A DNA stretch of 62,269 nt, counting the filler, from Basidiobolus ranarum (lineage: Eukaryota), in assembly GCA_040143965.1 (NCBI GenBank). It is 21 parts of 21 records of this genome, joined end to end, with 100 filler letters (N's around TTAATTAATTAA, not from the genome) between each part and the next. Parts side by side here need not be neighbours in the genome. Positions count along the whole stretch, not along the records: positions 23,827 to 26,699 come from JASJQH010002906.1; 20 more parts are not named here. One strand, given 5' to 3'. The notes under the pieces were generated by a model. That model was not told where the DNA came from. It saw nothing but the letters and a program-made list of their open reading frames with translations, and made no database searches. This document shows, piece by piece, positions 3,280-50,543 of this stretch. The stretch's first letter is position 1; the number at the start of each line of letters is the position of its first letter. The position numbers were made by a program, and so were the translations under genes.

Positions 3280-3281
3280 AA

Positions 3282-7717: not shown

Positions 7718-7833
7718 CCAATTCTACATCAACCAATCTATATCCATTTATTGATTATTTTCGTATTCACGTACTTATGCACTTTGAATAAACTATAAAT
7801 GGAACATCTAGAATTTAATGACTTACCATAGCC

Positions 7834-7903
7834 TTAACAGGAATATATCATAGCATTAACAGGAATATATCATAGCATTAACAGGAATATATCATAGCAT
7901 TAA
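7834..7903 (+). repeat. Minisatellite, 3 x 22 bp TTAACAGGAATATATCATAGCA
   Basis: Three perfect tandem copies read directly from the sequence. Confidence 0.95.
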
Positions 7904-8943
7904 TACGGATATATATGCATTGATAGAAATATGAGCTATAACTATGATGACAGCCAGCCATTACGATCAATATATAATTAGCTGCATTATTATCTATAAG
8001 CAACTGTCAAATGTTTGAAGTGACTGCTTCTGATTGACCGATGATAGGAAATTCAATGAAGTCATTTATGTTTGACTTTCTTACCATCTTTATCGTCTTG
8101 TGATACAATGTCCCATATTTATCATCACATAAATCGGAACTGCTGATAATAAAAGAAATCTTCTCACTCGATAAACAATCCAATAGCATGACCCATCCTA
8201 CCTTTCTCAAGTACGTTCGTTACCAGCATGAAAACGCAGTACTTCGTTTAAAGAAGGTATGGTATCATTCATGACTACTTGTTCAACAATAATTCCGTAG
8301 TGGGTCTTGGATATTCTGTCTCTTTGACAAATCATCTTCGCATTTGATCATGTTTCCAATATTGTTAACCCCGACACTGCGAATATGAGTAGACCTGATC
8401 CATTCCATTCCGATAAGCCCAATAAGTAAGGGCTGTTTGCTTTAATAGTTCATAGATACAGAGATAGGCAGTTGCAACAATCGAGTATCCATTATAGCAT
8501 TCAAATATTTCACACTCTAGGTCAGGTAATATTACCACTTTAATAGCAACTTCTATTCACGGACATCATAGCTACTGATATCCCAAGTTAGGGAATAAAA
8601 TAGTGTGATGTCCCGACAAAGTACAGCCCGCACCACTGAAATAGGTAGTTTCACTTGGATTGCAACAACTTACCGAGAGTTCTGCATTAGATTAGGCTCG
8701 GTATGATATCAAATTCACGAGATTATTTTCGCGTTATAAACAGTAAATGAGAGTCCAATGAAAATGGAGAATGGATGCTAAGCTACGTAAGAAGGGTCGC
8801 ATAAATCAATTAAGTTTGACACTCATTGGTTGTAAAATCAAATNNNNNNNNNNNNNNNNNNNNNNNNNNNNNNNNNNNNNNNNNNNNTTAATTAATTAAN
8901 NNNNNNNNNNNNNNNNNNNNNNNNNNNNNNNNNNNNNNNNNNN

Positions 8944-9052
8944 AGACGCGTTCACGATTGACCAAACAAGTCAAGCGTTCTGGCGAGAATGCTTGCACAG
9001 TCCACATGGCAAGAAGCATGAGGAAAATGGAGTGAATTGCAGTTGGATTCAT
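8944..9052 (-). CDS. Secreted CAP/SCP-domain protein, copy 1 (5' end only)
   Basis: MNPTAIHSIFLMLLAMWTVQAFSPERLTCLVNRERV matches the N-terminus of the complete paralog at 9980-10631. Confidence 0.8.
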
Positions 9053-9979
9053 TTGTCTGGGTATAATTGATATTGATGCTGCTTGAAATAATAGGGATGA
9101 CAAGAGTGCTGATGGTATTGCCTGTTGACTTTGTAATGGAGACTGATGAACTTTCTAGGGACCAAAGTAACCTCATATATAGGATTTAGCGTTTCTATGA
9201 ATGAGTCTAATGCCACTGATCAAATATCTCCTTAGCAGATGTCTCGTTATTATCTATTCGGTTATATTCTACAGGTTGCATCTCCATGTGGCAGTAGACA
9301 GAAATTGAATAACAGCCACTTCCAGTTATATTGCATAGAATTGCTGATTAGATATTCTAAATTTGATCACCGTGCTGTTTGAACGGGTTTGGACAAATCT
9401 GGATAGAGTTGCATAGTGACACCTCGATCTCCGATAATAGTACCTTGGCAAGCATGTGGGTAAACAATCTGCGCAGGTATGATTAAGAATCGGGATTATT
9501 CAGTAGAATTTGAATTGTTTCAAAATCATTTAGCAATCATTCCTTAGTAGATTGATATAACAATTGATAACTTTTGGAAGATGGAAAGTGGGTAAAGATA
9601 GAGTATGTTGCAAGTGTCGTTTATTAGTTGATAAATCAATGTTCCTAGAATGGAAAATGGTTGCCTAAGACAATTATCCTAAAGAATGGCGAGTCACCTT
9701 CTGATCAGCACGTTGCACTAATATTTATAATTTGAAAATACTCCAAATCATTACAAGCTAATGAACTATTATCCCAAAGCTGATTATAATCTAGCAATCT
9801 TCAGTGTAGTTGTCATTTATTAGAATAGATATCGTAAGCATCTCGTCATCATAGTAAATAAAGGAGAAAAGTTCTATCAGAAATCTAGCGTAATGAAATG
9901 GGCTTCTCTAATTATTTAGATAAAAAATGGTGAATAATAAAAATGTCGTCTAGGGAAAGTAATATTTGAGGATGAAAGA

Positions 9980-10631
9980 TCAAGGGCACACTGGGACTTG
10001 GCTATAGTTGATTCTACTAGGGTCCATTCCCAAAAACTCCATGGTCCAGTAGTTACCCCGAGGATCAAATCCGGTTCCTGCGTGAGTAAAAGATGGGGTA
10101 AGAATGTTACGGCGATGGACTAAGAAATACAAGTAGTAAGTTAGCATGGTGATATTCTTATTGAGGAATATTCAGAATCGGGAGGCAGTATCCTTTGATA
10201 AAGTAACAAATTAAGTATAGCTTACCTTCAGAGTGCATCCACTTGTATACTACTTGCTCTTCGGTCTGATCACCGGCTGCGACATTCTCAGCTCGAGTGC
10301 GATAGTTGTATCCACGAGATCTTGCGACGTCACCCATGTCAGGCCGGTCAGAGCGATTGTGAGTCATCTGGCGACGATCAGCTTGGCTCTGGGAGTGATG
10401 TTGTGCATCTTCGCCTAAATCCCTATTAAAGACGAAAAGTATCAGTTAGGCATCTTCTTTGTTGCGCCTGATAAATATTTAATAGCATTACCCATTTAGT
10501 ATCAGGGGATTCAATCCTCGTGAGACTCGCTCGCGGTTGATTAGACATATTAAGCGTTCAGGAGAATATGCTTGTACAACAGAGAAAGAGGCGAGGATAA
10601 TTGGCAAGATGATGAATGAGCTAAATTTCAT
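9980..10631 (-). CDS. Secreted CAP/SCP (allergen V5/Tpx-1/PR-1 superfamily) protein, copy 2, three exons
   Basis: Exons 10631-10492, 10422-10226 and 10119-9980 with GT-AG introns give MKFSSFIILPIILASFSVVQAYSPERLICLINRERVSRGLNPL...AQHHSQSQA...MTH...AENVAAG...KWMHSEVHRRNILTPSFTHAGTG...YWTMEF...PVCP-stop. These are classic CAP motifs. Confidence 0.9.
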
Positions 10632-11690
10632 GATGCAAAACTAAAGATTGATAAGTAAATGAGAACGTTTGTTGTTTTTGTATTTACCTTTTCACTACTC
10701 TTTATATAAGAGATGTCATTGACACACTAGCACTAGTGCTTGTTCCGGTAGTGTTAGATCCGATCCTAATTTACAATAGACTACCGTTCTAACTGTAGTT
10801 TATACCTTCACTATCCGGATATAAAAGACTGTACCTATAACTTATTATCTATCCATTTAATTGATCCAAGTGCTTCTGTAGCTCAAAGAAATAGGTCAAG
10901 GCTCTATCAATAGAAATATAAACAGAAAAAGGATTATCTTCTAATTGATCCTCACCAGATGTAATGCCCTATATTATACCCGATCATGCCAACTAAAGTA
11001 AAAATAAGGGTTAGGTACGATAAAAGGAGGCCTATTTATGGGCGTCATGATACAGTAGATGTAGTCTATCTATTTATCGTAAGATATCTTAATGGAGTAT
11101 AGAGCATAAGAATCTCGTTAAGGCGCTAGAGAAAAACCACACAACCTTGAATGCCAGATACATATAATACATGTGTACCTTACGCATAATGATTCTTCAA
11201 CTACTTGCGCACTGCGCCAATAACATGAAGAAATAAACGATATCGTGAAAGCAAGTGATAAGATTGTTACATAATGTGTAATTTACTTCAACTACGCCCA
11301 TTAGCGCTCTATGTTTTGTTTGTATAAGTATAATGCTGTGTGAGCACAAATCAAAACAATAACTCTACATCATGCTATCAACTTGCATGTGTTTTGAAAA
11401 CTAACCAACAGTTACATATACTGGTCAATGTATACATAAAGAAGTGTGCAATAAACTTGTAGACCATCCAAATCTTCTCGAATAAAACAGATAAGATTTG
11501 CTTTATGAAAAGTGGAGTATCTTAAATTGAAGGAAGTAATGTATTTATTGCTATTATATAGATATAAAATAAAATAGGAACCATCGAATTAATGTATAAT
11601 AGGAGGATAAATAATGTGAAGTGGAGAGGAAGTGGTCAGACTCTGGTTCGAGTACTAATATTCAAGAAACCAAATATATTGCAAGGATAG

Positions 11691-11823
11691 TTAGGGGCAA
11701 ACAGGAACCTGGTTGTAATCGATCCTGTTGGGATCCATCCCTAAGAACTCCATGGTCCAGTAGTTGCCACGAGGATCGAACCCGGCCCCAGCATGCGTAA
11801 AGGAAGGTGTAAGGATATTACGA
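11691..11823 (-). CDS. Secreted CAP/SCP protein, copy 3 (last exon only)
   Basis: RNILTPSFTHAGAGFDPRGNYWTMEFLGMDPNRIDYNQVPVCP-stop, near-identical to copy 2 at protein level with many synonymous changes. Confidence 0.88.
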
Positions 11824-11976
11824 NNNNNNNNNNNNNNNNNNNNNNNNNNNNNNNNNNNNNNNNNNNNTTAATTAATTAANNNNNNNNNNNNNNNNNNNNN
11901 NNNNNNNNNNNNNNNNNNNNNNNACCATTTTATACTAAATTTAAGAGAATCGTTGAATATAAATTGACAAAAACAT

Positions 11977-12049
11977 TGGAGCTGCAGGGTATCGATCCCT
12001 GTGCCTCTCGCATGCAAAGCGAGCGCTCTACCATCTGAGCTACAACCCC
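11977..12049 (-). tRNA. tRNA-Ala(TGC)
   Basis: GGGGTTGTAGCTCAGATGGTAGAGCG CTCGC TT TGC AT GCGAG AGGCACAGGGATCGATACCCTGCAGCTCCA, 73 nt, G3:U70 pair, downstream T-run. Confidence 0.96.
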
Positions 12050-12362
12050 ATTTCTTATGATATCGAAAGCAGTCGCTGCCTTTAATAATGAATTGTTATT
12101 ATGGTCTTTTGAATGTAGGCCTCTGCCTGCCTTCATATCAGCTAACGATCAGTACTTCTTTCTAAACAAGCATTTGTCAGCAGATAGACGCAATTACTCG
12201 GGACAACCGGTCAGTGAATCAAAGCTCAAATAATACTGTCTTATCCAAAATCAGACTACACCTATATCAAGTATGGTATCCCCAACGCCGATAACTATAT
12301 ACTTGCCACGCACCCATTCAACACCTCGGTTTATCCTCACTCTCAAAACCATTTTAAAACAA

Positions 12363-12435
12363 TGGAGATTCCGGGTATCGATCCCGGTGCCTATCGCATG
12401 CGAAGCGATCGCTCTACCATTTGAGCTAAACCCCC
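12363..12435 (-). tRNA. tRNA-Ala(CGC)
   Basis: GGGGGTTTAGCTCAAATGGTAGAGCG ATCGC TT CGC AT GCGAT AGGCACCGGGATCGATACCCGGAATCTCCA, 73 nt, G3:U70 pair. Confidence 0.96.
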
Positions 12436-12918
12436 AAGTCTAGAAAAGCAGACGTTTGCGAATTACGAATACAAAGATCATTAAGTAACTAATCAGACTC
12501 TAAGAATCGAACCAGGGACCTCGAAGGCTCGTACAAATCACTCATCCAGCCTCAGATGGAGATTGAAATTCAAATTGCGATTGAGATTGATGGGATTCAA
12601 TGTCTTTTTCATCGTTGTTGACTTTTCCCCTTTGTCCCCCTAGCACTCACTCTGCCTTAGTGATGTTTTACCTTCTATTCTGGATTCTGTTTGAGCTAAC
12701 TTGGTAGTTTGCTCTACTGAAGAAATGTCACTGAGCTCAACCTTCTCATGATTCCTGCTGATCATGCACCATAGCCCTAAGCTTATTCCTTAACCCTAGT
12801 CTGCATTCTTTTCGAGGTGGTGAGTTTTTGATAGTCTTATTTCAAAGGGGAAACCGCAAGGATTTACCTGTATTCTAAATTCCTCATGAATAAAGATATG
12901 CTTCAGTATGACTATATA

Positions 12919-13002
12919 GCTGATTTGGCCGAGTGGTCTAAGGCGGGTGACTTAAGATCCCCTCCCGGAAACGGGGCGCGAGTTCGAACCTCGCAGTCAG
13001 CA
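12919..13002 (+). tRNA. tRNA-Leu(TAA)
   Basis: GCTGATTTGGCCGAGTGGTCTAAGGCG GGTGA CT TAA GA TCCCC, long variable arm, GTTCGAA T-loop, ...AGTCAGCA, then a T-run. One mismatch in the anticodon stem. Confidence 0.93.
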
Positions 13003-14223
13003 TATTTTGTTCGATGAGTATCCACCTCCAAAGCCTCTAGCATTCCATCTCTTATCGATTTCAAAAATACACATTATTCTTTTGCATAGTTGAATCGCAT
13101 CATATACAAAAGCTAGATTTACACCTCCTTACATTACACTCATTTCTAAGTGGAGCAATCACCTTTCCTTACTTTTGATACTCTGGTCCTTTGTAATACC
13201 TGATTACTTCGATCTTCCCACCTGTTTCTTCCTCTTTTAGTAGTCCGTAAGGTTATTTGTGATCCCCGGTGGGTCCACTAAAGCTTCGCACACTAATTAA
13301 TTGGCTGAATGGCTCACCCGATGGAAGGAGATTTGTGGTGTTTTTATTTTCTTCACAATATTTTACGCTCTAGCTTAAGCTTAAACCGCCGTTCAACTTT
13401 GATTTCGTGTGCTTCTAGGAATTCGCTATTATCCTTTTTCTGCTCCCTTAACATCCTAGCCAGGATTGCCCTATAGTATTTCTAGATCGGGTTAGGGCCG
13501 GTGAATCCATCCATTCTCTAATTACTATTTCAACCGGGAAAAAGAAAAGTGATTTTGTGATTGCAAAATGCGCCACTCCCCCCTCTCATTATCAGTGAGA
13601 TCGATCATCACTGTGGGGTGTTTCGTGCCATGAGTCGAACCATGCACCTTACAATACACGTCTTTACTATTGCCAACCAATATTCGCTCGGCTTACTAAT
13701 TAAGCCAGGATGCTGTCTATAATATTCGACAAACTGCTGGAGGACTTATGGGAAATACTGGAAAAGAGAGAAGTTGTGATCTCTCATGATAGAAGCAGCG
13801 TATTTCCTTTATTAAATACTGAGGCATGCCATAAATTAGTGTTGACCGGGAAGAAAAAGGGATTCGTATACTTGCTAGGCAGGCAACTACTTAGCTGAAA
13901 AAAACTAAAGCCTAATTGCACTGGGAACTCTTCCGTGTATTCATCCAAGTGTTTATTGCACGCAAAACACTCACTCTATCATCCAAGCTAAACTCACCAT
14001 GTTCCAATGCGCTCCGCTCCACCTCGTCTAAGGTCCAATTAGATTCCCTTTTGCGGAGGAAGGAATGTCTTTCTCCAATCTAATCTCCTAACCAATAGAA
14101 TGCTCCATCTCTCTTATTCCTTACCTACTCTTCCACTAACACTCGATACTTGCGGAATATTCACCTATGTAAGCCAAAAATGGTTCAATCTACGATACTA
14201 TTTCATATTCTTGCTGATATATA

Positions 14224-14307
14224 GCTGATTTGGCCGAGTGGTCTAAGGCGGGTGACTTAAGATCCCCTCCCGGAAACGGGGCGCGAGTTCGAACCTCGCA
14301 GTCAGCA
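14224..14307 (+). tRNA. tRNA-Leu(TAA), second identical copy
   Basis: Sequence identical to 12919-13002; flanks differ apart from a short upstream TATATA. Confidence 0.93.
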
Positions 14308-14742
14308 CATTTTTCTTACTCCATCTTGTCTAGAACCGTTTCTCTTTTAAATTCTAACCCAGCTCTATGACTATTTTTCGAATTTCTCGCCATGGATTGG
14401 TTGTAAAGTCTGCTATTCTTCTATCTGTGGGTAGCTTTGCTACTTCCTTTCTACGGCTAGCTCTATTTGGTCCCATCCGAGAATTGGTCGGTTCCATCAA
14501 AGTATGGTATGGTGTGAATAAGGGGATTTCCAAAAGTTAGGATGCTCTGGCTAGATTTAGCTATTTTGCAGATTGTTGATCACAAAATTAAATCGGCCTT
14601 TCCAGAGATAAATGGTGGACACATCCACCTTTGATTTCTTATATTATTCCATTGTACTATATATATAACCCAGTCACACCAACTTAGTCACCATTTTATA
14701 CTAAATTTAAGAGAATCGTTGAATATAAATTGACAAAAACAT

Positions 14743-14800
14743 TGGAGCTGCAGGGTATCGATCCCTGTGCCTCTCGCATGCAAAGCGAGCGCTCTACCAT
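14743..14800 (-). tRNA. tRNA-Ala(TGC), partial, inside the terminal overlap
   Basis: Identical to 11977-12034, cut by the contig end. Confidence 0.85.
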
Positions 14801-14900
14801 NNNNNNNNNNNNNNNNNNNNNNNNNNNNNNNNNNNNNNNNNNNNTTAATTAATTAANNNNNNNNNNNNNNNNNNNNNNNNNNNNNNNNNNNNNNNNNNNN

Positions 14901-15614
14901 GGCACCACGGTTGATCATATCGAAGACACGACCAGGAGTACCAACAACAACGTGAACACCAGCTTCCAACTTTTGGATATCTTCACGGACGGTTCTACCA
15001 CCAATACAAGCATGACTTTCAATGTTCATGAAGTCACCAATGGCCATAAGGACCTTTTGGATTTGTTGAGCCAACTCACGAGTAGGGGCAAGAACAAGAG
15101 CTTGGCATTGCTTGATGGAAACATCAAGAGATTGAAGGATGGAGATGGAGAAAGTGGCAGTTTTACCAGTACCGGATTGAGCTTGAGCAATAACATCATG
15201 ACGCTTCAAGACAGGAAGGATAGCACGCTGCTGAATAGCGGAAGGACGTTCAAAACTGTATTTAATAGTTTAGTTAAAATTTAATAAAATACTTGTAACA
15301 ATAAAACAACTTACCCATAGGCATAGATACCACGGAGAAGCTCATCACGGAGGTTCATGTTATCGAAGTTATCGACGACCTCATCCCAGTTGGTCTAAAT
15401 GAGGCAAAATCAGTAAAGATGATCTTTAGCAAAAAAAACCAACCAATATCTTAAAGTTACCTCGATCTCTCCTTCAAGGTCGTTCAAAATCTCGGGTTCT
15501 CTGTGAAAAGTCAATAGTTTAATATTGAATACTATTTTAGAGTTCTACAACTACTATTCACTTGTCTAAAGTCAAGTAGTATTCGTTTGAAGGACTTTAC
15601 CTGTTGTCAGCCAT
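14901..15614 (-). CDS. TIF1: Translation initiation factor eIF4A (DEAD-box helicase), 5' half, four exons
   Basis: Spliced: [57 protein letters not shown]...AQSGTGKT...[11 protein letters not shown]...[10 protein letters not shown] (Q motif, motifs I, Ia, Ib). Confidence 0.95.
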
Positions 15615-16491
15615 GATGTTCAATAAGTAAGCAAAGCTACGCTTTCAGAAAAGAAGGAATAGCACCAGAAAGTTGGCTAGTTTTGGGCATATCCGTGAAA
15701 TTTTATGATTGGACAATTCCTCTTTGAACTTGGGTAGACACTATAAAAAAACCATTTTTTTGGGGACAGCCCAGGTCGAATTTGGGCGAATCGATTTTGA
15801 TTTGGGTAATTCTTTGTTTTTTTTTACAGGGAAAAAAAGTAGAAAATCGGATAAGAGTTGATCATCATCAATTAAACAAACAGCAACTTGGATAGAATCT
15901 ACATACTTAAATTAGTAATAATCTAATTCTTAATGGAACCAGAGAAATTATAGCAATGTGGTAAATAAATTTTGAAGTCAGATAATCATAGTATTCTTCA
16001 TTGGGTTTAGTAGACAAAATCTACATGTTAAAGTTTTGTCACTAAGTAAGGAATTTAATCCCTTGTTTCAACAGACGTACTGTTGACTAAAGCTTCAGTT
16101 TGTGTCTTTTTTTTTTGGTTTTGCCGATTTTCGTTTTCAACGATAATCTCAAGTTCCAAGACTAATTACTATTGAAAAGCTCCTTGCAAGAACTTTCTGA
16201 AGGGTTGACGTGGTTTGGAATCTTTGTCGAATTGGTGTTGTTGAATTTACTCTACTTGCTTTCCCTGATATTGACATCAAACTCGGATTCAGTTGATGCT
16301 TCGCTTACTTTACACATCTCTATAGTAAACCTTTTCTAAGTGATAAATATTTCCCACAAGCGAGCATTGCATACCAATTTAATTGCTACATTGGCTTCAG
16401 CTTCTCTTCAACTCTTTCTTTTCTGTTGAAATCTATTTTTTTCGTGTATTTCCCTTCATTTACTTTCTGCTTGGTGCCTTTACCCTTGTGA

Positions 16492-17776
16492 ATGGGGGTA
16501 AGTCATATCATTTCGTTCCTCTATCGTTTTTCCTCCAACTAAGTAGCTTTCTTTTAGCCTTCTACTATGATCAATAACTCTAATGATGACCAAGTACGGA
16601 ACACTTCAATTAGCCCTCAAATATTCACGGAGGAAATCCCTGAGAGCATACCCCAAGACAAAAACCCTCTACTTCAGGAAGGGAAAAAGATGATTCTATT
16701 AAAGCGACCTGAGCAAAGTAAAGATTTGGTGGAAAAAAATGTTTTGGATTCTCAAAATACTGAAGAGACTTCAAGCACTGAACTAGATGAAAATGAACTT
16801 GACGATTCCGAGGTACCTGCTAATAATGAGTTAGATGGGTTTTTATTGGCCGCTTTAAAGAGTCCCAAGGATCGACTTTTGTTGTTGAAGTTAGACCAGG
16901 AAATGGAAAGATTTATTAACGATTCAAGGTAAATATTCAACTATGAGTGCAAACTTCCTCTTCTATTCTTAACATTTTCTTTAGTCGTAATCGATTAGAA
17001 TTCCCTCAAATGAATGCTTATCAGCGTCTGATCGTTCACCGTGTAGCTCAGTATTTCAAACTCTCACATGTTGTGGACTCATCCAAAAAGGCGGTTATTT
17101 TATACAAATCGCCAGAAACCGAAATGTAATTGACAATACTTTCTATTTGTCCAATGAATTCACTTTTATTAACTATCTTCTTTGATCGTAGTCCTATACT
17201 TCGATTTATGGATTTATTGGAGCAGGAAGAGGAGCCTGCGCCCCAGTCATTAAAGATCATGCGTAGAGCCGATAACTCTCAATCCAATCAAAGAAAGGGC
17301 TTCAATGACGGCAGCGGAAGTGGTTCTGATGTAGATAAACGACTAATGAGTATCGAGGAGCGTGAGGCAGCTTACCAAAGGGCTAGGGCTAGGATTTTCC
17401 AAGATTCAGAGGACAAAAAGCCCACTATCCCTATTAATTCGGAAGTCGCTAATGAAGTGCCTGCGTTAGAGCAGGTCGATTCTCAACAGTCGCCATCTCA
17501 AAGCGATTCCGAATCTAATAAGAGTAGAAGCTCAAATACTAACAAGGCTGGTAGTGGTACTTACGTTAAAGGAGTGAAGAATAATTCAATTCGTGGGAAT
17601 AATATGGGTACGAAATCAAATTCACCCAGACCCGGGAACCAAAATACACGATACACACGTAATACCAATCACTGAAAATAATATTTTGTTAACTAGTTCC
17701 CGACCCTATCATCCCCCAAGATCTACTCCCAGAATTTAGTGCATGTCTACCTAAAAGTGCAGGTCTTTCACCGGAA
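16492..17776 (+). CDS. R3H and SUZ domain RNA-binding protein (ARPP21/R3HDM/Rbs1-like), 3'-truncated
   Basis: Introns at about 16498-16557, 16929-16984 and 17126-17191 join DRLLLLKLDQEMERFI, FPQMNAYQRLIVHRVAQYF (R3H) and KIMRR...SIEEREAAYQRARARIF (SUZ). The 2-codon first exon is tentative; the alternative start is 16567. Confidence 0.88.
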
Positions 17777-17876
17777 NNNNNNNNNNNNNNNNNNNNNNNN
17801 NNNNNNNNNNNNNNNNNNNNTTAATTAATTAANNNNNNNNNNNNNNNNNNNNNNNNNNNNNNNNNNNNNNNNNNNN

Positions 17877-20752
17877 AGCCATTGCCACTGAAGCACCAAT
17901 AGCAAGTGGGGCATATATCTCGAACACCGAAGCATCAAAAGTGTAGTTGGCGAACTGCAGGACTGAATCCTTGGCCGTAAGCTGATACTTTTGGTGGATT
18001 GCCTGAATAAAGGTAACCACTGCATCATGCTCCAACATTACTCCCTTTGGTATTCCAGTAGATCCCGATGTAAAAAGAACATAGCAAAGGTTCGAGCTGG
18101 TTAGTCCATCCACTTGAGGATTACTAGTAGAATGTTGTTGAATATGTTCATCATCCGAATCCACCAGAACTAACAAGATCTGTTTGTCAAAAGTCAGTTT
18201 ATATTGATCACTTGTCAATGCAACCTTGGCGTCAATTTCAGCAAGGATGAACCTATTTCGCTCAACCGGATTATTTGGATCCAGTGGCACATAGGCACCA
18301 CCAGCCTTGAGGACAGCAAGCATTGCCACTATCATCGGGACTGACTTGTCAAGACAAAGCGGGACCATCGACTCTGGACCAACACCAACATTGATCAAAT
18401 GATGAGCCAGTTGGTTAGCTCTACGGTTTAGTTCCTCATAGGTAACAGATTCCAGGTCTTCAAACTGAATTGCTATTTTATCTGGGTGGATTAGTACACT
18501 ATGTTCAAACAGCTTATGAAGGCAACCGGATTTTGTGTCAGTATAGTTTATCCGACTCCAGGCCTCTATTAGTGCAATTTCCTCATCTGTTTTAATGCTA
18601 ACATCTCTCACAGGAGTGTTTACATTGTTGAGGATCACGTTGATTGCTGCAATAAAGTGCCTCACAATCCAAGATGCTTCAAATTCGGTTACTGCTTGTT
18701 CATCGTATGTTAGGCTTACCCCAGGAGCTGTCCCATTAGTATTAATTTCTATCACAATAGGATAATCGATTGGCATGGTTACAGCTGATTGATTAAGTCC
18801 GATGGTGGCAAACCCTCCCGCCCCACTATCCTGGTTGATATTCTGGACTACCAAAAGGGTATCGAAGAGTGGACTTTCAACTGTATCGCCGCAAAGTTTA
18901 AGGATATCTTGTAGCCCGACGGATTGGTATTGATGTTGCTGGACCTGTGTGCTTTGAATCAATCGCAGTATGTCCAAAATTGATTGATCATCAGAGAGTG
19001 TAATACGTGTTGGAAATGTAGTAATACAAGGGCCACAAATATCTTGGATATATGGGAGAGGAATGCTTCTTCCTGAATTCACCACACCAAACACTATGTC
19101 GGAACTACCGATGTGCGACTTCAATACCAGCGCCCACGCTAGGTAGGATATTGTGGCTGCTGTTATATTATAAATACCAGTAACTGAAGTGAAATCCACA
19201 TGGATGCTTTCATAAATTCTGGATAATATTGGAGTCTCAGTGAGAATCGAGACCGATCTGGCCAAGTTAGTAGCAGGTGCCGAGCTGAGTGTAGCTTTCC
19301 AGTATTTGAGAGACTGCTGCTTGTCTTGATTCAATATGTGATTGATATATAGGGTGTAAGTCGGTCTGATCGTCAAACTATGACCTTGGTAAGCGGTGAC
19401 AACGTCAGACACTATCTGTTCCATTGACCAGCCATCGTATAGTGCATGATGGATTGTCCATATGAAGTGCACCGCAGTACCCCGAATTTTCACCAACGTG
19501 AAACGTGTCAAAGGTTGACCAATCAATATTCCTCTTGATCTATCATCCACCAAAGCTTTTTCTAGACCGTTTTCAAGTGCGTTGATATCTTCATATTCGT
19601 GAATATTCCACTCTACACTTTCACCACGAAGTACAACCTGTAAGCCATTCAAATGAGCAAAGCCACTGGTTGTAAATAGAATCGCAGTTCGAAGAATGGG
19701 GTTGGCATCAATCACTGTCTTCCAGGCTGTTCGAAGCCGCTCAATGTCAACACAGGACTCGCATTTGTACACTTGCTGGGTTAAATAAATTGAGTTTTCT
19801 TTCATACTAAGGGCTACCAGTCCTTCTTGCATTGGGGAGCAAGGGTATATGTCATGTACATCAGCCGGGCAGATGCCATTTTGCAATAGGTCACACTCTA
19901 ACAGGTGTTTAAGCTGATCTTGATCTAGATTAAGCAATGAATATTTTTCTATTTCCTTGGTTTCATGGATATTACAATCGATTTGGACGCTATTATTAGC
20001 CATTTCAGCAATGGTAGGATGCAAATACACATCTTGTACTGATAGTGTAAACCCGGCCATATGAGCAGCACCAACTAGTCGAATAGCTAGTACTGAGTCA
20101 CCTCCGAGATTAACAAACGAATCATGAACTCCTATAGCTGCCGCAGGAATCTTGAGTACAGACGACCAGAGTTTAACCCAGCTCTTTTCCACTTCTGTCC
20201 TGGCTCTAACATGTCCAGCGTCATCTGATATATTATGCAGCAACAAATCTTCTTTACTTAGGGTTGCATATAATGAAGCCAAGCTTTTTCGATCAATTTT
20301 CTCACTTGTAGTGAATGGCATCCTGTTAAGGGGCACCCAAATGGTAGGTATCATATACGAAGGCAGCTTCTTTCGAATAAGCGACCTGACCTCTTTAACA
20401 TAAGTAGCAAGTAGTCCACTATTAGGCCCTCCAGGTGTATATACAGGGAGGTTGCTGTCTACGAGTTCATGAAAGGTAATAAAAGCAGTCAAGGATTTAT
20501 GCTTTGTACTCTCATCAGTAACTAAAGGGATAACACAAGCTCTAGTTACTTTGGAGTGTTCTTGGAGTGCATGTTCTATCTCATCCAGTTCGATTCGTAA
20601 TCCATTTAACTTGATTTGATTGTCCATTCTACCAACTATTCTAACTGTTCCATCTTCATTAAAAAGCGCCAGATCACCAGTGCGATAGATTCTGGTATCA
20701 GTGTCGAAATCATTAGTGACAAATGCCATTTCTGTGAGGTCAGGTCGGTTGA
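17877..20752 (-). CDS. Non-ribosomal peptide synthetase, internal fragment: A(C-terminal)-T-C-A
   Basis: The whole contig is an open, intronless frame. A motifs YRTGDL, GRMDNQIKLNGLRIELDEIE and LPSYMIP; carrier LGGDSV; condensation PCSPMQEGL and HHALYDGWS; next A domain TYEELN, LKAGGAYVPLDP, YVLFTSGSTGIPKGV, FDASV. Confidence 0.97.
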
Positions 20753-20852
20753 NNNNNNNNNNNNNNNNNNNNNNNNNNNNNNNNNNNNNNNNNNNNTTAA
20801 TTAATTAANNNNNNNNNNNNNNNNNNNNNNNNNNNNNNNNNNNNNNNNNNNN

Positions 20853-21062
20853 CTTGTGGGCCACATCCTGTCGACCATAATATATTAGTATCTATTCAGT
20901 TAACATAGCGAATGATAGCATACCATTCTCAGTTGGTTTTGGTGCATTGATAGATGGGACAAGTCTTGGCTTATCTGCTGGACAAACGCTGCAGGTTTTT
21001 CCGAGAGTAAAAGTCAATATTTGCAAAAAGAGGAGAGCACGTACACCGCGAGAGAAAAGCAT
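20853..21062 (-). CDS. Secreted protein 5' end, possibly a group XII-like secretory phospholipase A2
   Basis: MLFSRGVRALLFLQILTFTLGKTCSVCPADKPRLVPSINAPKPTENG, then a GTATGC...CAG intron, then CGPQ. The spliced P..NGCGP resembles the PLA2G12 calcium loop; catalytic residues lie beyond the contig. Confidence 0.5.
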
Positions 21063-22719
21063 TTGTTCAGCTGAGTAGATCAAAAAGAGGATGTTGGTAA
21101 GTGAGAAACCGAGGCCTGTATATATACAAATTTTCTTTGAACTGATGCAAGTGAAAGATATGTTGGTAGTACTATCAGTGACTGAAATAATCATCGTTAC
21201 AGATCACACAAGGTTCGCAAGTATATTGCAATAGTTAAATAGTACAAATATCTATATAAATATCAACGTCTTTTGACTGTCAGTTTTTAGAAAACGGCCA
21301 CAACCGTTGATAAAGAATGCGAAATTGACACAGAAGCATTATCCAATCCGAGTACTTCATACTACGACCGCTTCCTCATTTTGGCAGGATTTACACGTAC
21401 AGTTCGCACGAGAAATCACCGCTTGTTGCTTACAACTTTGGCATCAACTCTCTTGCCGTAAGAAGCCGTTGGCGTTTCGATTTCCCTGTGATACACCAAT
21501 AGTGTAAGTTTTTTGACCAAGTCTTAACAAACCAATCGTAAGACCAATGTTCTATATACGACACTTGAGTTCATACTCTTTCATCCAGCAGTTCTATACT
21601 GTGACTTACCGCAGGTGTATTATCCATTGACATCGAAGGAGCTGGAGTACGATGGAAGCACCTATTCAAGTGTAAGAGGCAGCAGTCTGGCACAATGTTC
21701 CAACTAGAGTATAATACACGGCAATCAGCACGATTGGAGTAAGTGTTGGGGTATCATTACATTATATGGCTGAACTTCTATCCCATATACAAATGTCGTA
21801 GAGCTAAATCTGGTATTCGTTCCTGGATAATGCCTTCTAGAACTTTGAGCTGGTAAGGAATACCCTTACATCACTTAGCGTTTAAATACCACAGAGTCTT
21901 GACTCTTAAGACAGGTAAATAGCGGCCTACCGGTATTATTCATATTCTTCGATAATTAATCCAAATTCAAATGAATGCTCAATCTTTTAGATGGCGATAC
22001 TAAGGACTAGGGTGGGTTAGGGTTTACATATCAAGAGTCGGATTAAACAAGAATCACCAAACTCATGGCTGACAATGTATCTGGACAGCTTCACTTCTCC
22101 CGATACCAAAATATATGTTTCTGTCAAATACCACTTCGTTTGTTTGTTCTTACTTTGGATTGACATTGATGTTGTAGTGTAGGAGGAATCTTATCGAAAG
22201 AAATGCCGCTCTGAAATGTAGCGAATTGCAATGGCAAACTGCAGATGCAAGAGCGTGTAGTAAACTGACTCGAAGATTCCTCAATCAGTCAACTAACCAT
22301 GCTCAACATCAGAAACAGTGGAGTTCTTACTACTCAACACCTATTAAGCTTATCTATTTAAATAGAATTAGAGAATACAACTAATTGCTTAGAGAACTAA
22401 CTATTCAACACAATCTCTTGGGTTGATGTAACTTCATACCACATGATCAACCATCATAGATGGCTTAGCAGAGGAGTATTTATTCTAATATCCGATGCAA
22501 TCAAATATGTATACATGTATTATCTTGTGGCTATAGAGTTGATAGATATTTGGGAATTTAGCTATATATGGATAACAAGGAGAACATTAATTTAATGCTT
22601 ATATTGCGGAAGGTATTTATTACACTCTTCAATACACTCTACCAGTGTCATTAAAGAACTAACCTCTTGCTTCTTTAAAGGAAGTCTAATAATCCTATCC
22701 CACACTAAAATAAGCAATC

Positions 22720-23726
22720 ATGGTCGAAGAGAACAACCACAGAGAGATACCCCCAGAGCTTACTAACTATGCAAACTCCAAAGTAAAGCAATGGTACCTC
22801 AGTATTCCATGGCTGACCATCGCTATCATACTTCTTTGCTTGAGCATAAGGTTGCTTGATAATATCGCTTGGGGTGCTCTTTCTTTGGGCCCATCTCTAG
22901 GTTTAATCCCAAATAAAGTGCTAGAAGGACAGAGTAAGTTTTGACTTTTCTTCAACTTTCTCAATTTTTACTAATCCAGCATATTCTTTCCTTCAAGTTC
23001 ATCGACTTGTAACCCATCCATTTCCACAATCTGGCTTATGGAGTCTAATCCTTAATCTTTCGGTTTTCTTGCCCTTAAGCAAACGTATGGAGAGCTCTCT
23101 AGGTACCATCAGATACCTTTACACCTTAATCATAGTGTTCACAATAGTACCTGGTTTAATTTACCTTGTTCTAAGTGAACTTTTGGGTATACTTGTTGAG
23201 CATAACTTCATTGGTATTCGCGGCTGGATATTCATTCTTATATCATGGGAATGCCGAGTTCCACGTAATATAAGGTAGTGATTTTAGACGTTGCTCAAAC
23301 AATTATTTAATACTAACCAGTGTTCGTAGTGTATTTGGAGTTTGGAATATTGCTTCCAAGTTATTCCCGGTTTTCATCATGTTGGTTATGGTATTTTTAA
23401 GTATGGATTCTTCGATTCTAGTTTACCCAATCCACCTGGTTCTTGGATACCTATGTAAGCATATTAGACATTAGTCTACTTTTAAATGGTGACTGTACTA
23501 ATCATTTACCTGACAGATGCTCATGATAGACTTGAGTTTTTGAATATATCCACCTCTAAGCTTGAGAAACTAGAGGCTTGGAAAATATTCGGCTCCTTTA
23601 GAGAAACATCTCGGTTCATTAAGCTATCACAGGTGGACCCTACATTACCTCTATTTAACCAGCCTATTCCAGAAGAATCAACTGTACAATCACCACCACA
23701 AAACACCCCTTCTACGGAGCAACTGC
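22720..23726 (+). CDS. Rhomboid-like membrane protein (Rbd2/RHBDL4-type fold), catalytic motif degenerate, 3'-truncated
   Basis: Four exons: IPWLT...LGLIPNKVLEGQ|IHRLVTHPF...LILN...PLSKRMESSLGT...FIGIRGWIF...|...PIHLVLGYL|YAH. Layout matches rhomboids, but GxSG reads GIRG. Confidence 0.75.
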
Positions 23727-24201
23727 NNNNNNNNNNNNNNNNNNNNNNNNNNNNNNNNNNNNNNNNNNNNTTAATTAATTAANNNNNNNNNNNNNNNNNN
23801 NNNNNNNNNNNNNNNNNNNNNNNNNNAACCAACAGTGTTTAAAGGTCGCGGCCAATACTACTGAAGATTCTCCCCTTTGTCTTTGGGCATATCCTTTTTA
23901 GCTTGCTCTCAACTGGAGAAAGACCAGAATGGTTTTGCAGATTGAAGGAACCTCTCTCCACCAGGTATAAAAGAAAGGGTATCTTGTCAGCTAGCAGCAG
24001 TCGACCAACTCAAAAAGCAAGCAATCCTGGATAGTCATCACTACACCAAACACGTGATACGGAGTAAGTTTCTTTGCCATGTGTCTGAGCTTATCTCCAA
24101 TTTATTTTATGAAATGTCTAATTAATTTTTTTAATTCATCTCATTTTAGATTAAAACACTGTAAAAACCTCAATTTACTGATAGGGTGATGAGCCATTTG
24201 A

Positions 24202-25587
24202 TCAACTGAAGCTATTAAGAAAAGTCACATAATCTGAGTCTTTGATACTTATAGAGTCAAGTGCTGCTTGGCGTGACTCCGCACTGATGCGCTCGTAGAG
24301 TGAGCGGTCATTTAGCAATGAATTTATCTCATTGATCCAAGGTTGAATATCATTCTGAGGGACCTTCAGCGGTCCATGTCGCGTGATTTCTTCTGCATCC
24401 AATTCTCGCTCGTTGGTTGCCAGAACAACCGGAATAGTGGCATGAAGAATACCACACTTTGCTTCAGGAACTCCTCCCGCATTACTACAGACAACCGGAA
24501 TTCCTCGAAGCATAGCTTCCATAACAACATTACCAAAGGTCTCTAACCAAAGCGATGGTGCGACAAGAATCTTGGTGCGTTTCCACACTGGCTCTAGTGT
24601 GGGCATTGGGGCTAGTAGCTCAACATTGGGAAGATCGGCCAGCTTAGAAGCTTGGTATTCAGTAACATCCCAACTTCTTACCGCAATAAATTTAGTGTCG
24701 GCCATTTCTTCAGCTACCGGGTAAAAGATAGAGAAGCCTTTGAGTGTTCCCGGATTTATAGCCACAACGCAAGCGTCTGGATTATCGAAGTTCGTGTAGC
24801 TGGGAGCGTTGGAAGCATCAAAACGACTTGGGTGTAATGGAAAATGTTTTACAGGAATATTGACACTACCGTACTTATAAATGTATTCCTGGATTGCCTT
24901 GCTAACTGCCCAAACCCCTGTTACCTTCGACTCTAACACTTTCGTGTAATATGGATTATAATCCTCAGGCCATGATGCTGATATAACTGGGCTTACATCT
25001 TGGGGACCGAAGGGTAAAATATTGCTTACGTGAGTAATAACAATAGTCTTGATGCCACTTTTTTCTTGTGGCATAAACTCAGAGGCAGCATATAAAGAAA
25101 GTGAATCACTGCAAAGAAAATGGGTTGGCTGAAACCGACGAACTTCCTTTCGAATTAGCTGGGCGTAGTACTCCAGCATCTTGTTCTCCTCTCTTCCCAG
25201 AAGCCAATCTGCAGGATATACTGAAGGTATAAACCCATTCCCTCCCAAATCATCGACACAAAAAGCGACTACAGAAAGTTGATTCACTGTTAGCCTATAA
25301 AGTCGCAACTCTTTCGGAGTTTCAGTTGGGGGATGAAGAATTTCTACTGAATTGACCGTCACTTGCTTGTCCTCAATTTCATGCGAAAAGCATCCAACAA
25401 ATAATAGAGCCTCGTGACCCTGAGATTTCAGCGCTTCTAGAAATGCTTTATCGGAGCGTGGTCCACCAGCGGCTGCAAATAATCCCGGAAATACCTGGAC
25501 AATCATCACGCGAATTGGATCGCCATTCGCAAGAGGTGTGTTCACAGAGGTCGACTGTGCAATGCTTGACTCATCAGATGCCAACAT
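24202..25587 (-). CDS. Glycosyltransferase, GT-B fold, family GT4, intronless, 461 aa
   Basis: N-terminal GG loop (AAGGPRS...LEALKSQGH), INPGTLKG, and the E-x7-E motif PSLWLETFGNVVMEAMLRGIPVVCSNAGGVPE. TATAAATA on the minus strand about 50 nt upstream of the ATG. Confidence 0.92.
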   Translation of the reverse strand: MLASDESSIAQSTSVNTPLANGDPIRVMIVQVFPGLFAAAGGPRSDKAFLEALKSQGHEALLFVGCFSHEIEDKQVTVNSVEILHPPTETPKELRLYRLTVNQLSVVAFCVDDLGGNGFIPSVYPADWLLGREENKMLEYYAQLIRKEVRRFQPTHFLCSDSLSLYAASEFMPQEKSGIKTIVITHVSNILPFGPQDVSPVISASWPEDYNPYYTKVLESKVTGVWAVSKAIQEYIYKYGSVNIPVKHFPLHPSRFDASNAPSYTNFDNPDACVVAINPGTLKGFSIFYPVAEEMADTKFIAVRSWDVTEYQASKLADLPNVELLAPMPTLEPVWKRTKILVAPSLWLETFGNVVMEAMLRGIPVVCSNAGGVPEAKCGILHATIPVVLATNERELDAEEITRHGPLKVPQNDIQPWINEINSLLNDRSLYERISAESRQAALDSISIKDSDYVTFLNSFS

Positions 25588-26191
25588 CTTGGGATATGGC
25601 TAATATGCAGACGCAAGGTTCCTGACCCAGCCTATTTATATTGAGAATGGCCGTATAAGTCTATTCTTCATTTGTGGTTGTGTGAAAACCATATAAGGTA
25701 TCTTTCATGTATTCAGGCTGTAGTAGTTAGTAAATGGTGTTACCTACAAGTTGGATATGGGCCGAAATGGGTATAATTGCTATTACTGTGCTCATCAAAA
25801 GGAGTGAGAAATTCGAACCTTTTTGTCCAAAGGCCATTGGTGTAACTACGTGCAATATGTAGGTCAAAAATTGTGGTTAGGGTAACCTGTCGCATTCTTA
25901 ATATGTAAGTGTGTAATTGCAGTCCGGATTCACGATGATTATCGTTGCTATATTTATCGTGCATGCATATAGGTGGGATTATGTTGTCAGTAGCTCAGGA
26001 TAGCAAAGAGAGAATCCTTAACCAAGAGCTGTGACACGGTCTAGGATCCGATTACCATTAACCCTAGCTCTTTTTAAATTGACCACATCTACATTAATTT
26101 TAAAAGATGCTCAAGAACAAGACCTTTCTCCATCTTGGTTTAACCATTTTATTACATATGATATATTTGGCTTAATTTCTGTGGTCGAACA

Positions 26192-26699
26192 TTACTGAAT
26201 GTACTCTGCAACCTTGGAGACATGGGGATCAAACATCAGTTCATGATGTTCAGCTTCAATGGTATGTATAGTAACCCGAGGAGAGTATTGCGACCAGCCA
26301 TAGCATACTTGCTGGTCACTATCCCATTTTTCTGAGATAGCTTTAATCAAAACAATACTTGTCTTCAGTTTCTTTGCAGGTGGAGAGTATTTGTTCATCA
26401 ATTGTGTGTTATTCTCGATTTTGTCACAAATCATTCGAACAGCGGTTTCTTCGAGGTTCCATTGACCCAATCGAGAAATCAGCTCAAGATACTCCTGACT
26501 GGAATGAGCTATATTGGTTCCCGTTGATGCCAGAGGGGCTAGAGTGTCGATCACGGTCACTTTCGCTACCTCCAAGCCCTGTGCTTCAAGTTGACGCGCG
26601 GCCTCAAATGCCACAAGCCCACCAAAGGAATATCCATGGAGATAGTAAGGTCCCTCAGCTTGAATACGGCGAATGACTGTCAAATAGCTGGCGGCCCTC
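26192..26699 (-). CDS. C-terminal type I thioesterase domain, probably the end of an NRPS/PKS (5'-truncated)
   Basis: AASYLTVIRRIQAEGPYYLHGYSFGGLVAFEAARQL...VIDT...GW...EHHELM: GxSxG nucleophile, Asp and His triad positions. The frame is open to the contig edge. Confidence 0.9.
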
Positions 26700-26799
26700 N
26701 NNNNNNNNNNNNNNNNNNNNNNNNNNNNNNNNNNNNNNNNNNNTTAATTAATTAANNNNNNNNNNNNNNNNNNNNNNNNNNNNNNNNNNNNNNNNNNNN

Positions 26800-29461
26800 C
26801 AAAATGATCAAAAACTGCCTAATTTCTGGAATTCAAATCAGCCCCCCCAAGCAAAATGGAAATGTGTGAGGGTTGTATATATGGGAAAAATGCCAGGCAA
26901 CTGTTCAGTAGCTCTGGTTTAATCAAATCTGTCAAAAAATTGGATCTAATACATTCAGATTTGTGTGGTCCTATGCAAAATTTATCTTTAGGTGGAAAAA
27001 GATATTTAGTCACATTTATTGATGATTATCTAAGATGCACTTGGGTCTATTTATGGAAAGAAAAGAAAAAGCTCTCTATATCTTGAGAGGTTTTAAAACA
27101 TTTGTGGAGACTGAAACTGGAGTTAAAATCAAGAAAATACATACTCATAATGGTGAAGAATATACTTCAACACTGTTTAAGCACTTTTGCAAAGTTCATG
27201 GAATTAAGCCAGAAACTACTGCCCTCTATTCACCTCAACAAGGTGGAGTTGCTGAAAGAGCTAACAGGAAAGTAATAGAAATGGCAAGATCTATGATAAA
27301 TGCACAAAATTTATCTCAAACCTTTTGGGCAGAATCTGTTGTTACAGCTGTAAATGTGAAGAATAGGAGTTTTCCCAGAAGTCTGTCTAACTCTACACCA
27401 TATCAAGCTTGGTTTGGAGTTAAACCTAATGTAAAACATTTGAGGATCCTTTGATGTATTGCTTATGTCAAAATTATGACCAAAAATTGGTCTAAATTTA
27501 ATTCAAAAAGTAAGAAATGCTTATTTCTGGGTTAATGTATTTGAACTAAAGCCTGCACACTCTATGATACCAAAATTTCCAAGTTAACCAAGTCCTGGGA
27601 TGTATTGTTCAATGAAAATGAAAAATATGCACCCACAATGATCTCAGATGATGATAAAAATCAATTTTCTCCTGATCCAATCATTCAAATTGATTCAAAC
27701 AAAACAATGCAGAAAATAGCATTCCTGTGGACCCTTCAACCAAAATTTTGCCTACTGAAGTGCCCATTACAATACCACAAGTTGTAGTACCTCTATCCCA
27801 AACCAGGATAACAAATTGGATCAGAAATAGCCCTGAATACTATATCATTAAGTCTCAAAATTGGGCCTATGCCTGCACAGATCAAATACATGAAACCCAT
27901 ATTGTAAAAGAGGCCCTGAATGGCCCTCACACAAAATTTTGAAGAGCTGCAATGGCTGATGAGTACCAGCCTTGCCTGATAATCAAACTTGGATTTTAAC
28001 CAACTTACTAGACAATAGAAAATCAATTGGCTGCTAATGGGTGTTTAAGATTAAGTATAAAACTGATGGCAATATAGAAAGGCACAAGGTTAGATTAGTA
28101 GCCAAAGGCAATTCCCAAGCACCAGACATAGATTATAAAGAAATGTTTGCTCCTGTAGCAAAGTTTAACTCAATTAGATTGATTTTAGCAATTGCAGCTA
28201 AATATCAGCTTGTTATACATCAAATGGTTGTTAAAACTGATTTTTTGAATGATGAGCTTTCTAAGGATATCTATATGGACCAGCCAAATGGCTTTGTGGA
28301 CCCAGAAAACATTAAAAAAGCTTGCAGACTCCTGAAAACACTCTATGGTTCAAAACAATCTCCAGGAGCATGGAATAGAAAGATAGATGCTTTTTTGGAG
28401 ACACCCAAATTCCAAAAGAGTAATGCTAACTATATGATCTACTTCAGGCCAGATTAGACAAATCCAGTTTTATTAGCCTTATATGTAGATGGCCTTATGA
28501 TAGCAACCAATGACTAGAAGACTTGGGAGAAAACCAAATCAAGCTTCTCTGCCAAATTTAAAATGACTGATCTTGGTGAACTAATGTACTATATTGGAAT
28601 TCAAATTAAGATAAATTGAACTACCAAAACAATAACTTTAAACCAGTCTAAATATATCCTAGATATACTAAAGAAATTTAAAATGGAAGAATGTAATCCA
28701 GTATCTACCCCAACAGAGACAAATCTTAACTTGACCAAAAATGGTTTAAATCAGATGTTTTTGGATACAAATGAAAGCCAAAAATTTCCTAATCAATCTA
28801 TGATTGGTAGGTTGATGTACAATACAGTTGAAACATTGCCAGATATTGCATATTTGATGGGAGTCATGTACCAACATCTTCAAAATTATGGATCTGATCA
28901 AATCATAGCAGTTCAGCAGATTCTCAGATATTTCAAAGGTATTGTGGTTATGTGCTTAAAATACAAATATTGTGGATCAAACTTTGATCTGATGGGATAT
29001 TCAAACACAAATTGGGGAAGAGATATTGAAGACAGGAGATCTACAACAGGATACTTATTTCTTTGCTGTAATGAAGCTATTTCTTGGAATTCAAAGAAAC
29101 AACCTACCATATCACTTTCAACCACAGAAGCTGAATATATGGCTGCCTGTGAAGCAACAAAAGAAGCAATATGGTTAAGAAAACTCTCAACAGATTTGGT
29201 TTTTCTCAAAATTCACCAACTATAATATTTCAAGATAATTAAAGTTATATCAAATTAGCTAAAAATCCCATGTTTCATAATAGTAGCAATCATCTAGATA
29301 GTAAGTATCATCTCATTAGACAGACTATAGAGAATAAGTTTATTGACTTAACTTATTGTTGTACAGAAAACTTGATTGCTGATGTATCAACCAAAGCATT
29401 AGCTACACAGAAATTTGAGAAATTTAGACCTTTATTAGAATTAGTTTATATGATTATTTAG
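26800..29461 (+). mobile_element. Ty1/Copia pol pseudogene: integrase, reverse transcriptase, RNase H
   Basis: CEGCIYGK, IHSDLCGPM, FIDDY, PQQGGVAERANR, VRLVAKG, HQMVVKTDFLN, LYVDG (YVDD), RRSTTGY, SWNSKKQ, STTEAEY, IADVSTKAL; many stops and frameshifts. Confidence 0.96.
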
Positions 29462-29671
29462 GTGAGGGAGAGTGTTGAAATTAGCATTGCCTAAACACCT
29501 AGATAGTCATATATAGCTTAGTACTTAGTTTTCCTATAAGTCACTAAGATATTATCCATTATTCTCAATTGGAATTTACTTGGAATATTTTTACCAACTT
29601 AGAAGTTCTCAGATATATAGATTTTTCAAACTTGTTCTAGAAGCCCCAAGCTTTGCACATATGTTTCTAAG
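29461..29671 (+). mobile_element. Copia polypurine tract and partial 3' LTR
   Basis: GGTGAGGGAGAG followed by TGTTGAAA at 29473; homologous to the LTRs at 39438-39785 and 41065-41412. Confidence 0.88.
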
Positions 29672-50443: not shown

Positions 50444-50543
50444 NNNNNNNNNNNNNNNNNNNNNNNNNNNNNNNNNNNNNNNNNNNNTTAATTAATTAAN
50501 NNNNNNNNNNNNNNNNNNNNNNNNNNNNNNNNNNNNNNNNNNN

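Follow-up and report, generated by a model that had tools for sequence, protein, structure and literature searches.

A nonribosomal peptide synthetase end and a glycosyltransferase gene of probable bacterial ancestry form a gene pair in Basidiobolus ranarum

The window analysed here is a 62,269-nt stretch of Basidiobolus ranarum DNA assembled from about 21 unrelated contigs, each of ~2.87 kb and separated from the next by N/linker/N spacers. One of these, contig G000:C2906 (positions 23827–26699; 2,873 bp, 42.5% GC), which is not linked to the DNA past either spacer, carries on its minus strand the last 168 amino acids of a type I thioesterase (TE) domain (26192–26698), the end of a multimodular nonribosomal peptide synthetase (NRPS), and behind it a glycosyltransferase (GT) gene of the GT4 family (24202–25587). 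An earlier, sequence-only reading had described a TE followed ~0.6 kb downstream, on the same strand, by a complete intronless GT4; this arrangement was confirmed, with a spacer of 604 bp (25588–26191) that holds the 3′ end of the NRPS gene and the GT promoter. As set out below, C2906 covers the 3′ portion of what is a genuine NRPS–GT gene pair of Basidiobolus, and the pairing recurs at a second locus.

The GT gene runs from an ATG at 25587 to a stop at 24202 and encodes 461 amino acids (P0001) without an internal stop; because its product aligns end to end with a 461-amino-acid protein of Basidiobolus meristosporus (ORX92131.1; 81% identity), the gene is complete and intronless. The protein exceeds the cut-offs of PF00534 (48.5 bits; cut-off 26.4) and PF13692 (52.3 bits; cut-off 27) and stays below the gathering score of the GT4-conflict family, PF20706 (20.7 bits vs 26). 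It is predicted by AlphaFold to adopt a GT-B fold (pLDDT 88.6, pTM 0.87), and the best Foldseek matches of this model are glycogen synthase, MshA and BshA, with E-values of about 1e-15. His186 (25030–25032, minus strand), invariant in 25/25 rows of the fungal-clade alignment, is presumably the acceptor-side histidine of GT4 enzymes, while the motif N278-P-G-T-L-K283-G284 (24736–24756, minus strand), with N278, K283 and G284 invariant in 91/91 rows, is what we take to be the donor phosphate site. The E349-x7-E357 motif (24517–24543, minus strand), which we regard as that of retaining GT-B enzymes, is intact, and the retaining type of the enzyme is assigned by prediction. Compared with its paralog on contig C6910 (pN 0.21, pS 0.79, the latter saturated), the gene is, by its sequence, under purifying selection with its catalytic motifs intact.

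The sequence-only reading had also given the GT gene a TATA box of its own. The octamer TATAAATA lies at 25633–25640 (minus strand), 53 nt 5′ of the ATG, and the same octamer stands 49 nt 5′ of the ATG of the C6910 paralog, although the two spacers (604 and 475 bp) cannot be aligned. By itself, however, the octamer is no commoner in the window than in shuffled sequence (7 vs 6.9 occurrences). A scan for sigma-70 promoters returned chance level only.

The TE domain (PF00975, E 6e-26) reaches the contig end, and its catalytic residues were placed by alignment to the TE of bacterial NocB, its best solved relative (E 1e-12): Ser24 of GYSFGG (26627–26629), Asp51 (26546–26548) and His151/152, of which His152 (26243–26245) completes the triad. 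That this domain ends an NRPS, as the sequence-only reading had it, is not visible on C2906 itself and follows from its paralogs and from a contig overlap. The B. ranarum genome holds 34 TE matches, 8 of them close (56–67% identity); 7 of these 8 lie at the end of a long NRPS frame or directly behind one, and the other is a short orphan tail. Moreover, the first 29 nt of C2906 in gene sense (26671–26699, minus strand) match the last 29 nt of contig G000:C7524 at 27/29 positions and in frame, compared with 18–21/29 for 8 other contigs at the same 29 nt. C7524 (10,995 bp) terminates within its own TE and encodes A-T-C-A-T-E-C-A-T-E plus the first part of the TE (A, adenylation; T, thiolation or carrier; C, condensation; E, epimerisation domain), with one spliceosomal intron. 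Only one further orphan TE tail exists, on C5090; it shares 94% identity with C805 and so belongs to a different gene, fitting the other orphan head, C9673. C7524 is thus very probably the upstream half of the C2906 NRPS, judged from these sequence matches. A search of the genome's contigs found no contig upstream of C7524, whose start repeats an internal A-domain stretch (10939–10956 and 7678–7695), the likely reason why the assembly broke there.

The second locus lies on C6910, a 42-kb contig bearing fungal genes, where an NRPS with four A domains (3138–19035) is followed after 475 bp, on the same strand, by a GT 64% identical to that of C2906. Because the order, TE then GT, is the same on both contigs, the pairing is not a matter of chance. 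The NRPS family to which C7524 and C6910 belong ends in A-T-E-TE (E domains read from motifs), and within it the terminal T-E regions of these two are sisters (support 92/94), with 7 others falling outside (100/99). Between their terminal A domains identity is 73%, vs 52–61% to 9 others scored, and the two have the code DALNQGGVAK in common, whereas all four GT-less paralogs with a readable terminal A domain carry hydrophobic codes (DAHLMGVV-K, DAIMMGAVAK, DAIMAGAVAK and DSLVMGGVAK). The code positions were assigned from what we take to be the PheA motifs, and the codes are read as polar or hydrophobic only, there being no calibrated code table for this NRPS family. The penultimate modules of the two NRPSs differ. 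The N-terminal exon of the C6910 NRPS has no Pfam match, and no acyl starter (Cstart/FAAL) or acyl-ligase domain was seen in C7524, whose NRPS start lies off the contig, so the lipid portion of the product envisaged by the sequence-only reading found no support.

Genes 3′ of other members of the NRPS family vary (2OG oxygenase, Band 7, short-chain dehydrogenase, lectin and GILT). On C7410 (5506–6709), a 2OG-Fe(II) oxygenase stands directly 3′ of another T-E-TE paralog and is a possible different tailoring partner. On C4477 (L236, 58–1177), a truncated TE remnant of the same family is followed by a frame that resembles by eye the start of a GT1/UGT and that has no Pfam match.

Homology searches with the C2906 GT returned 163 proteins, and among the best 120 of them the top matches are fungal and at least 23 are named fungal homologs, belonging to Basidiobolus, Glomeromycota, Chytridiomycota and Pezizomycotina. 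Roughly 175 eukaryotic members of the family fall in one ESM cluster. When 290 domains were placed in a FastTree (one fungal row left out for short coverage), 24/24 named fungal rows and 4 unnamed metagenome proteins formed one clade. An IQ-TREE analysis of 63 rows, comprising 25 of the fungal clade (22 named fungal and 3 unnamed metagenome proteins) and 38 others (the 8 nearest plus a spread), supported that clade at 100/100, with a bootstrap not fully converged. When a distant GT4 outgroup was added, the fungal clade nested in a bacterial subfamily, inside two nodes of 99% SH-aLRT support; this was a quick tree, with an inner backbone of 80–94 and one long outgroup row misplaced. Inside the fungal clade, a long common stem (0.89) carries the GTs of C2906 and C6910 together with the B. 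meristosporus ortholog of the former. The GT thus groups with fungal GT4s, among them a third, unclustered B. ranarum copy on C20 (17339–18800), while the clade as a whole nests within bacteria; the nesting anticipated by the sequence-only reading was recovered, but a lineage-specific bacterial xenolog was not, the nearest relatives being fungal. Since the C20 copy has two introns, the intronless state is no sign of recent transfer. On these trees, the simplest reading would be that the GT entered fungi once, early, from bacteria and was then patchily retained; later transfer between fungi may also have occurred. A metagenome scan for fungal neighbourhoods yielded only one fungal-like locus among 80, 1.6 kb long.

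Bacterial members of the GT family are tied to assembly lines. A scan of prokaryote genomes with the single GT sequence gave no match and an alignment-based scan gave 374, the best 77 of which provide the neighbourhood counts that follow. A T domain lies within 700 bp upstream of the GT at 56 of the 71 loci with enough flank, C or TE stands directly downstream at 57/77, and FkbH is present at 36/77 (confirmed on 2 examples). Longer GT homologs are fused to TE or C in 66/70 cases (TE 48, C 18). The upstream T domain was seen in 7/9 bacterial phyla (Acidobacteriota 39/48, Bacillota 11/12, Chloroflexota 3/6, Myxococcota 1/1, Cyanobacteriota 1/2, Verrucomicrobiota 1/1 and Pseudomonadota 1/5, with Planctomycetota 0/1 and Gemmatimonadota 0/1), and a Streptomyces plasmid carries ACP, GT, GT4, TE and HAD-IIIC together with nucleotide-sugar genes. 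These counts, with the nesting described above, support a bacterial origin of the GT family and its strong association with NRPSs, in line with the sequence-only reading. A slot of this kind, fixed between T and C or TE, would be expected of a domain that works on tethered intermediates.

Representative bacterial layouts are FkbH-T / GT / GT-TE (Bryobacteraceae), A-T / GT / C-A-T-TE-MFS (Paenibacillus) and T / GT-C-A-T (Acidobacteriota, Chloroflexota, Myxococcota). These assembly-line GT4s resemble the C2906 GT in subfamily, at 27–37% identity, in their NRPS linkage and in the nesting of the fungal clade among them; they differ in that they lie, as separate or fused units, between T and C or TE, whereas the C2906 GT is a separate gene after the TE. 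The Bryobacteraceae-type loci (L064, L065, L072, L075 and about 17 others) are compact and have no C or A domains, and at the 2 checked a D-2-hydroxyacid dehydrogenase lies 3′; from this gene content, the system probably represents a carrier-based route to glycosylated glycerate. In Bacillota, the arrangement A-T / GT (one or two) / C-A-T-TE is conserved at nine loci (L057, L058, L061, L078, L086, L088, L099, L107 and L109), with a transporter of the major facilitator superfamily (MFS) fused in the two C-A-T-TE proteins scanned. The bacterial GT nearest the fungal clade (L110, 3085–6575) lies directly 5′ of a YcaO/TOMM cyclodehydratase, which hints at use in a cluster for ribosomally synthesised and post-translationally modified peptides. 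FkbH-T modules like those upstream of many bacterial GT members also occur in the cystomanamide and vioprolide NRPSs, the cystomanamides being glycosylated lipopeptides, according to passages of PMC8949500. FkbH itself had no match in the B. ranarum genome, where the control query matched nowhere either.

Among solved enzymes, MshA (3c4q) and BshA (6d9t, 5d00) share with the C2906 GT the GT-B fold (TM about 0.6) and the E-x7-E motif, and MshA is the only one matched by sequence (E 0.0015). They are, however, only 12–16% identical to it, and its NCBIfam scores fall far below cut-off (BshA 27.6 vs 273.7; MshA not listed for P0001), so that neither donor nor acceptor can be transferred from them. 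Searches of the open-licence literature turned up neither an account of this GT subfamily nor a glycopeptide from Basidiobolus; the bacterial GT family may already be described in subscription journals, the home of myxobacterial cluster papers.

When an A domain of the C7524 NRPS was compared with plasmid records, identity to the 1,207 that matched was no higher than 40.4% (best match cyanobacteria and others). A control NRPS from the B. ranarum genome reached 58% to Mycetohabitans, the control query being A-T-TE and not A alone. The TEs of the C2906 family and of Mycetohabitans-like NRPSs are divided by a long branch. A motif that we take to be the bacterial C5 type was counted 38 times across the bacterial loci but is absent from all 22 loci examined in the C7524/C6910 family, where GP[CT]IxTxPxR was seen 6 times. 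Low bacterial identity and absence of this motif together argue that the family is not a recent import of Burkholderiaceae type. The E6 motif of the internal E domain of C7524 ends in YG, described as the bacterial form in a passage of PMC10212144; with C5 not bacterial-like and E6 bacterial-like, the motifs are mixed. Membership of the family in the SIDE clade would be plausible. That clade is expanded to 76 A domains in Basidiobolus in the main text of Tabima et al. (2020, PMC7466969), and the size of the C7524/C6910 family would fit such an expansion.

NRPS expansion, TE endings and horizontal transfer in Basidiobolus have been published (PMC7466969; bioRxiv 10.1101/2021.12.02.471044, in the parts of each cited here). 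The published repertoire consists, as here, of multimodular, intron-poor NRPSs of the same genus, some TE-ended; unlike the present locus, it includes no GT-linked cluster in the main text, where the sole mention of "glycosyl" refers to hydrolases (PMC7466969). The sequence-only reading had also taken TE release as a bacterial mark. A TE is indeed present, but this ending is common in the B. ranarum genome, as the 34 matches attest, and is reported for the genus in the main text of PMC7466969. TE release is described as rare in fungi, with the penicillin NRPS, ACV synthetase, as an exception, in a passage of PMC2823734. ACV synthetase likewise ends in E-TE and leaves a C-terminal D-residue, and differs in its module layout and in having no GT, no relationship being shown (PMC2823734 and PMC10212144, passages of each). 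A TE search restricted to proteins of 2,698–5,000 amino acids gave 16 distant matches (25–39% identity), of which the 7 named are all actinobacterial and none is from Basidiobolus.

Taken together, we favour, at a probability of roughly 0.6, a reading based on sequence comparison in which a GT of old bacterial descent was co-opted to attach a sugar to the D-residue at the C-terminus of an NRPS peptide. The NRPS, reconstructed across the presumed join of C7524 and C2906 as at least A-T-C-A-T-E-C-A-T-E-TE, would join three or more residues into a peptide in which the final two are epimerised; its last module would load a polar residue and convert it to the D-form, and the TE would free the peptide by cyclisation or hydrolysis. 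The GT, a predicted retaining nucleoside diphosphate (NDP)-sugar transferase, would add a sugar to this peptide, most likely at the conserved last-module residue. Historically, the GT would descend from a single early entry into fungi from the bacterial assembly-line family; a copy in Basidiobolus would then have diverged fast and become linked to a single lineage within a resident, expanded NRPS family, and duplication of the NRPS–GT pair would have followed before the split of B. ranarum and B. meristosporus. Because the bacterial relatives sit in the slot between T and C or TE, action on the carrier-bound chain is suggested; by this analogy we rate it somewhat short of an even chance, the alternative being action after release. 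A still broader proposal, that the subfamily is an NRPS tailoring domain for carrier-bound intermediates (the T-GT-C/TE slot across many bacterial phyla) that entered fungi once, early, and was redeployed by Basidiobolus to act in trans at the final T domain of one of its resident NRPSs, is one that the sequences allow and that we regard as rather doubtful.

Several observations weigh against recruitment of the GT to the NRPS peptide. Seven of nine close TE paralogs lack this GT, and the overlap on which the C7524 join depends contains 2 mismatches. The C6910 NRPS is interrupted twice, by an in-frame stop shortly ahead of the TE core and by a frame break in an A-run, which may reflect real decay or faulty assembly. 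Since the GT beside it is intact, that GT may work independently of this NRPS, unless the interruptions arose in assembly; upstream of this NRPS and divergent from it, an ABC transporter (19895–22000, read from motifs) looks fragmented. The TE-only tree, otherwise poorly resolved, groups the C2906 TE with C805 (89/89) and not with C6910. The two GT-linked loci represent one duplication, not two independent events, so their common A code is partly kinship. The bacterial loci come mostly from a single phylum, Acidobacteriota (48/77). Finally, the known Basidiobolus metabolites, basidiosins and meristosporins, are unglycosylated cyclic pentapeptides; as the E domains would predict, they contain both D- and L-residues, but no sugar is reported ("glyco" is absent from PMC10964425), nor is there a link to the C2906 NRPS.

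The strongest competitor holds that the GT merely adjoins the NRPS and serves a separate function, such as adding sugar to a lipid or a small hydroxy acid, as the unclustered C20 copy might, and that it was carried along when the NRPS region was duplicated. This would account for the intact GT beside the broken C6910 NRPS, for the varied genes 3′ of other NRPS family members and for the intron-bearing C20 paralog, which is unclustered among housekeeping genes (presumably elongase-like, eIF2B-epsilon-like and helicase-like, as read from motifs). We nevertheless consider it unlikely, since the tight TE–GT order has been kept across saturated synonymous divergence, the conserved polar terminal module occurs only in the GT-linked NRPSs, the bacterial GT family is tied to assembly lines and the NRPS-linked copies share a long stem. 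Less probable again is that the GT protects the producer by glycosylating the released peptide into an inactive form for storage or export, the sugar being no part of the active product. Antibiotic producers do protect themselves by glycosylation, and a stand-alone gene with its own TATA box 3′ of the NRPS and the ABC transporter 5′ of the C6910 NRPS would suit such a role; yet the bacterial slot between T and C or TE points to a biosynthetic step, and no glycosidase was recognised beside the C2906 or C6910 locus among open reading frames read by eye, not all of them scanned.

The sequence-only reading itself, in which a single module bringing both NRPS and GT was taken up from a bacterium and then adjusted to eukaryotic transcription, fares slightly worse. 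It gains from the bacterial, NRPS-tied character of the GT family, the intronless GT gene, the bacterial NocB as best solved TE relative, the YG ending of E6 (PMC10212144, in part) and the published transfer of NRPSs into Basidiobolus (PMC7466969, main text). It is improbable, however, in that the GT belongs to a fungal clade spanning four phyla and its nearest relatives are fungal (in part the very outcome that the sequence-only reading had named as refuting it), the NRPS is not of the Mycetohabitans-like type (identity and C5 counts as above), C7524 contains a spliceosomal intron, and bacterial GTs precede C or TE whereas the Basidiobolus GT follows the TE as a separate gene. That the contig is bacterial contamination or the TE a stand-alone hydrolase, as a short contig without introns and a TE start off the contig might suggest, has a negligible chance: contamination is excluded by the 81%-identical ortholog in B. 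meristosporus, which lies on a contig of 102 kb, the paralog pair on the fungal C6910 contig and a host-like third-position GC content (GC3; 0.38 vs 0.39 in one comparison host gene), and the hydrolase by the seven full-length close TE paralogs that end or follow long NRPS frames.

Elsewhere in the window, an internal A-T-C-A fragment of the C7524/C6910-type NRPS family lies on contig C2904 (17877–20752, minus strand) and shows no connection to the C2906 gene pair; comparison of contig ends found no overlap between the two. An adjacent contig bears a rhomboid-domain gene with introns (20853–23726). Past the artificial spacer at 26700–26799, and unlinked to C2906, lies a degenerate copia-like long terminal repeat (LTR) element (26800–29671) with integrase and reverse transcriptase remnants read by eye. 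Joining C2906 to the NRPS fragment, the rhomboid gene or the LTR element was rejected, these being separate contigs. Other contigs hold an aquaporin (MIP) frame (50495–51331) and a SUZ-domain frame (17130–17672).

NRPS clusters that include a glycosyltransferase are already known, as are genes of bacterial origin in Basidiobolus. If the broader proposal, with redeployment on the last T domain, is correct, this would be on-line glycosylation by a fungal NRPS and a first glycosylated nonribosomal peptide from Zoopagomycota. The locus offers a definite starting point in the search for a glycopeptide not yet described, in a genus of which few metabolites have been characterised. As a soluble stand-alone member of a widespread and apparently uncharacterised GT family, the C2906 enzyme would make the question of carrier-bound substrates approachable, and it could supply a glycosylation part for NRPS engineering. 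For Basidiobolus itself, the pair would have a mosaic origin, in which an old bacterial-derived GT was combined with a resident NRPS lineage, as opposed to wholesale import.

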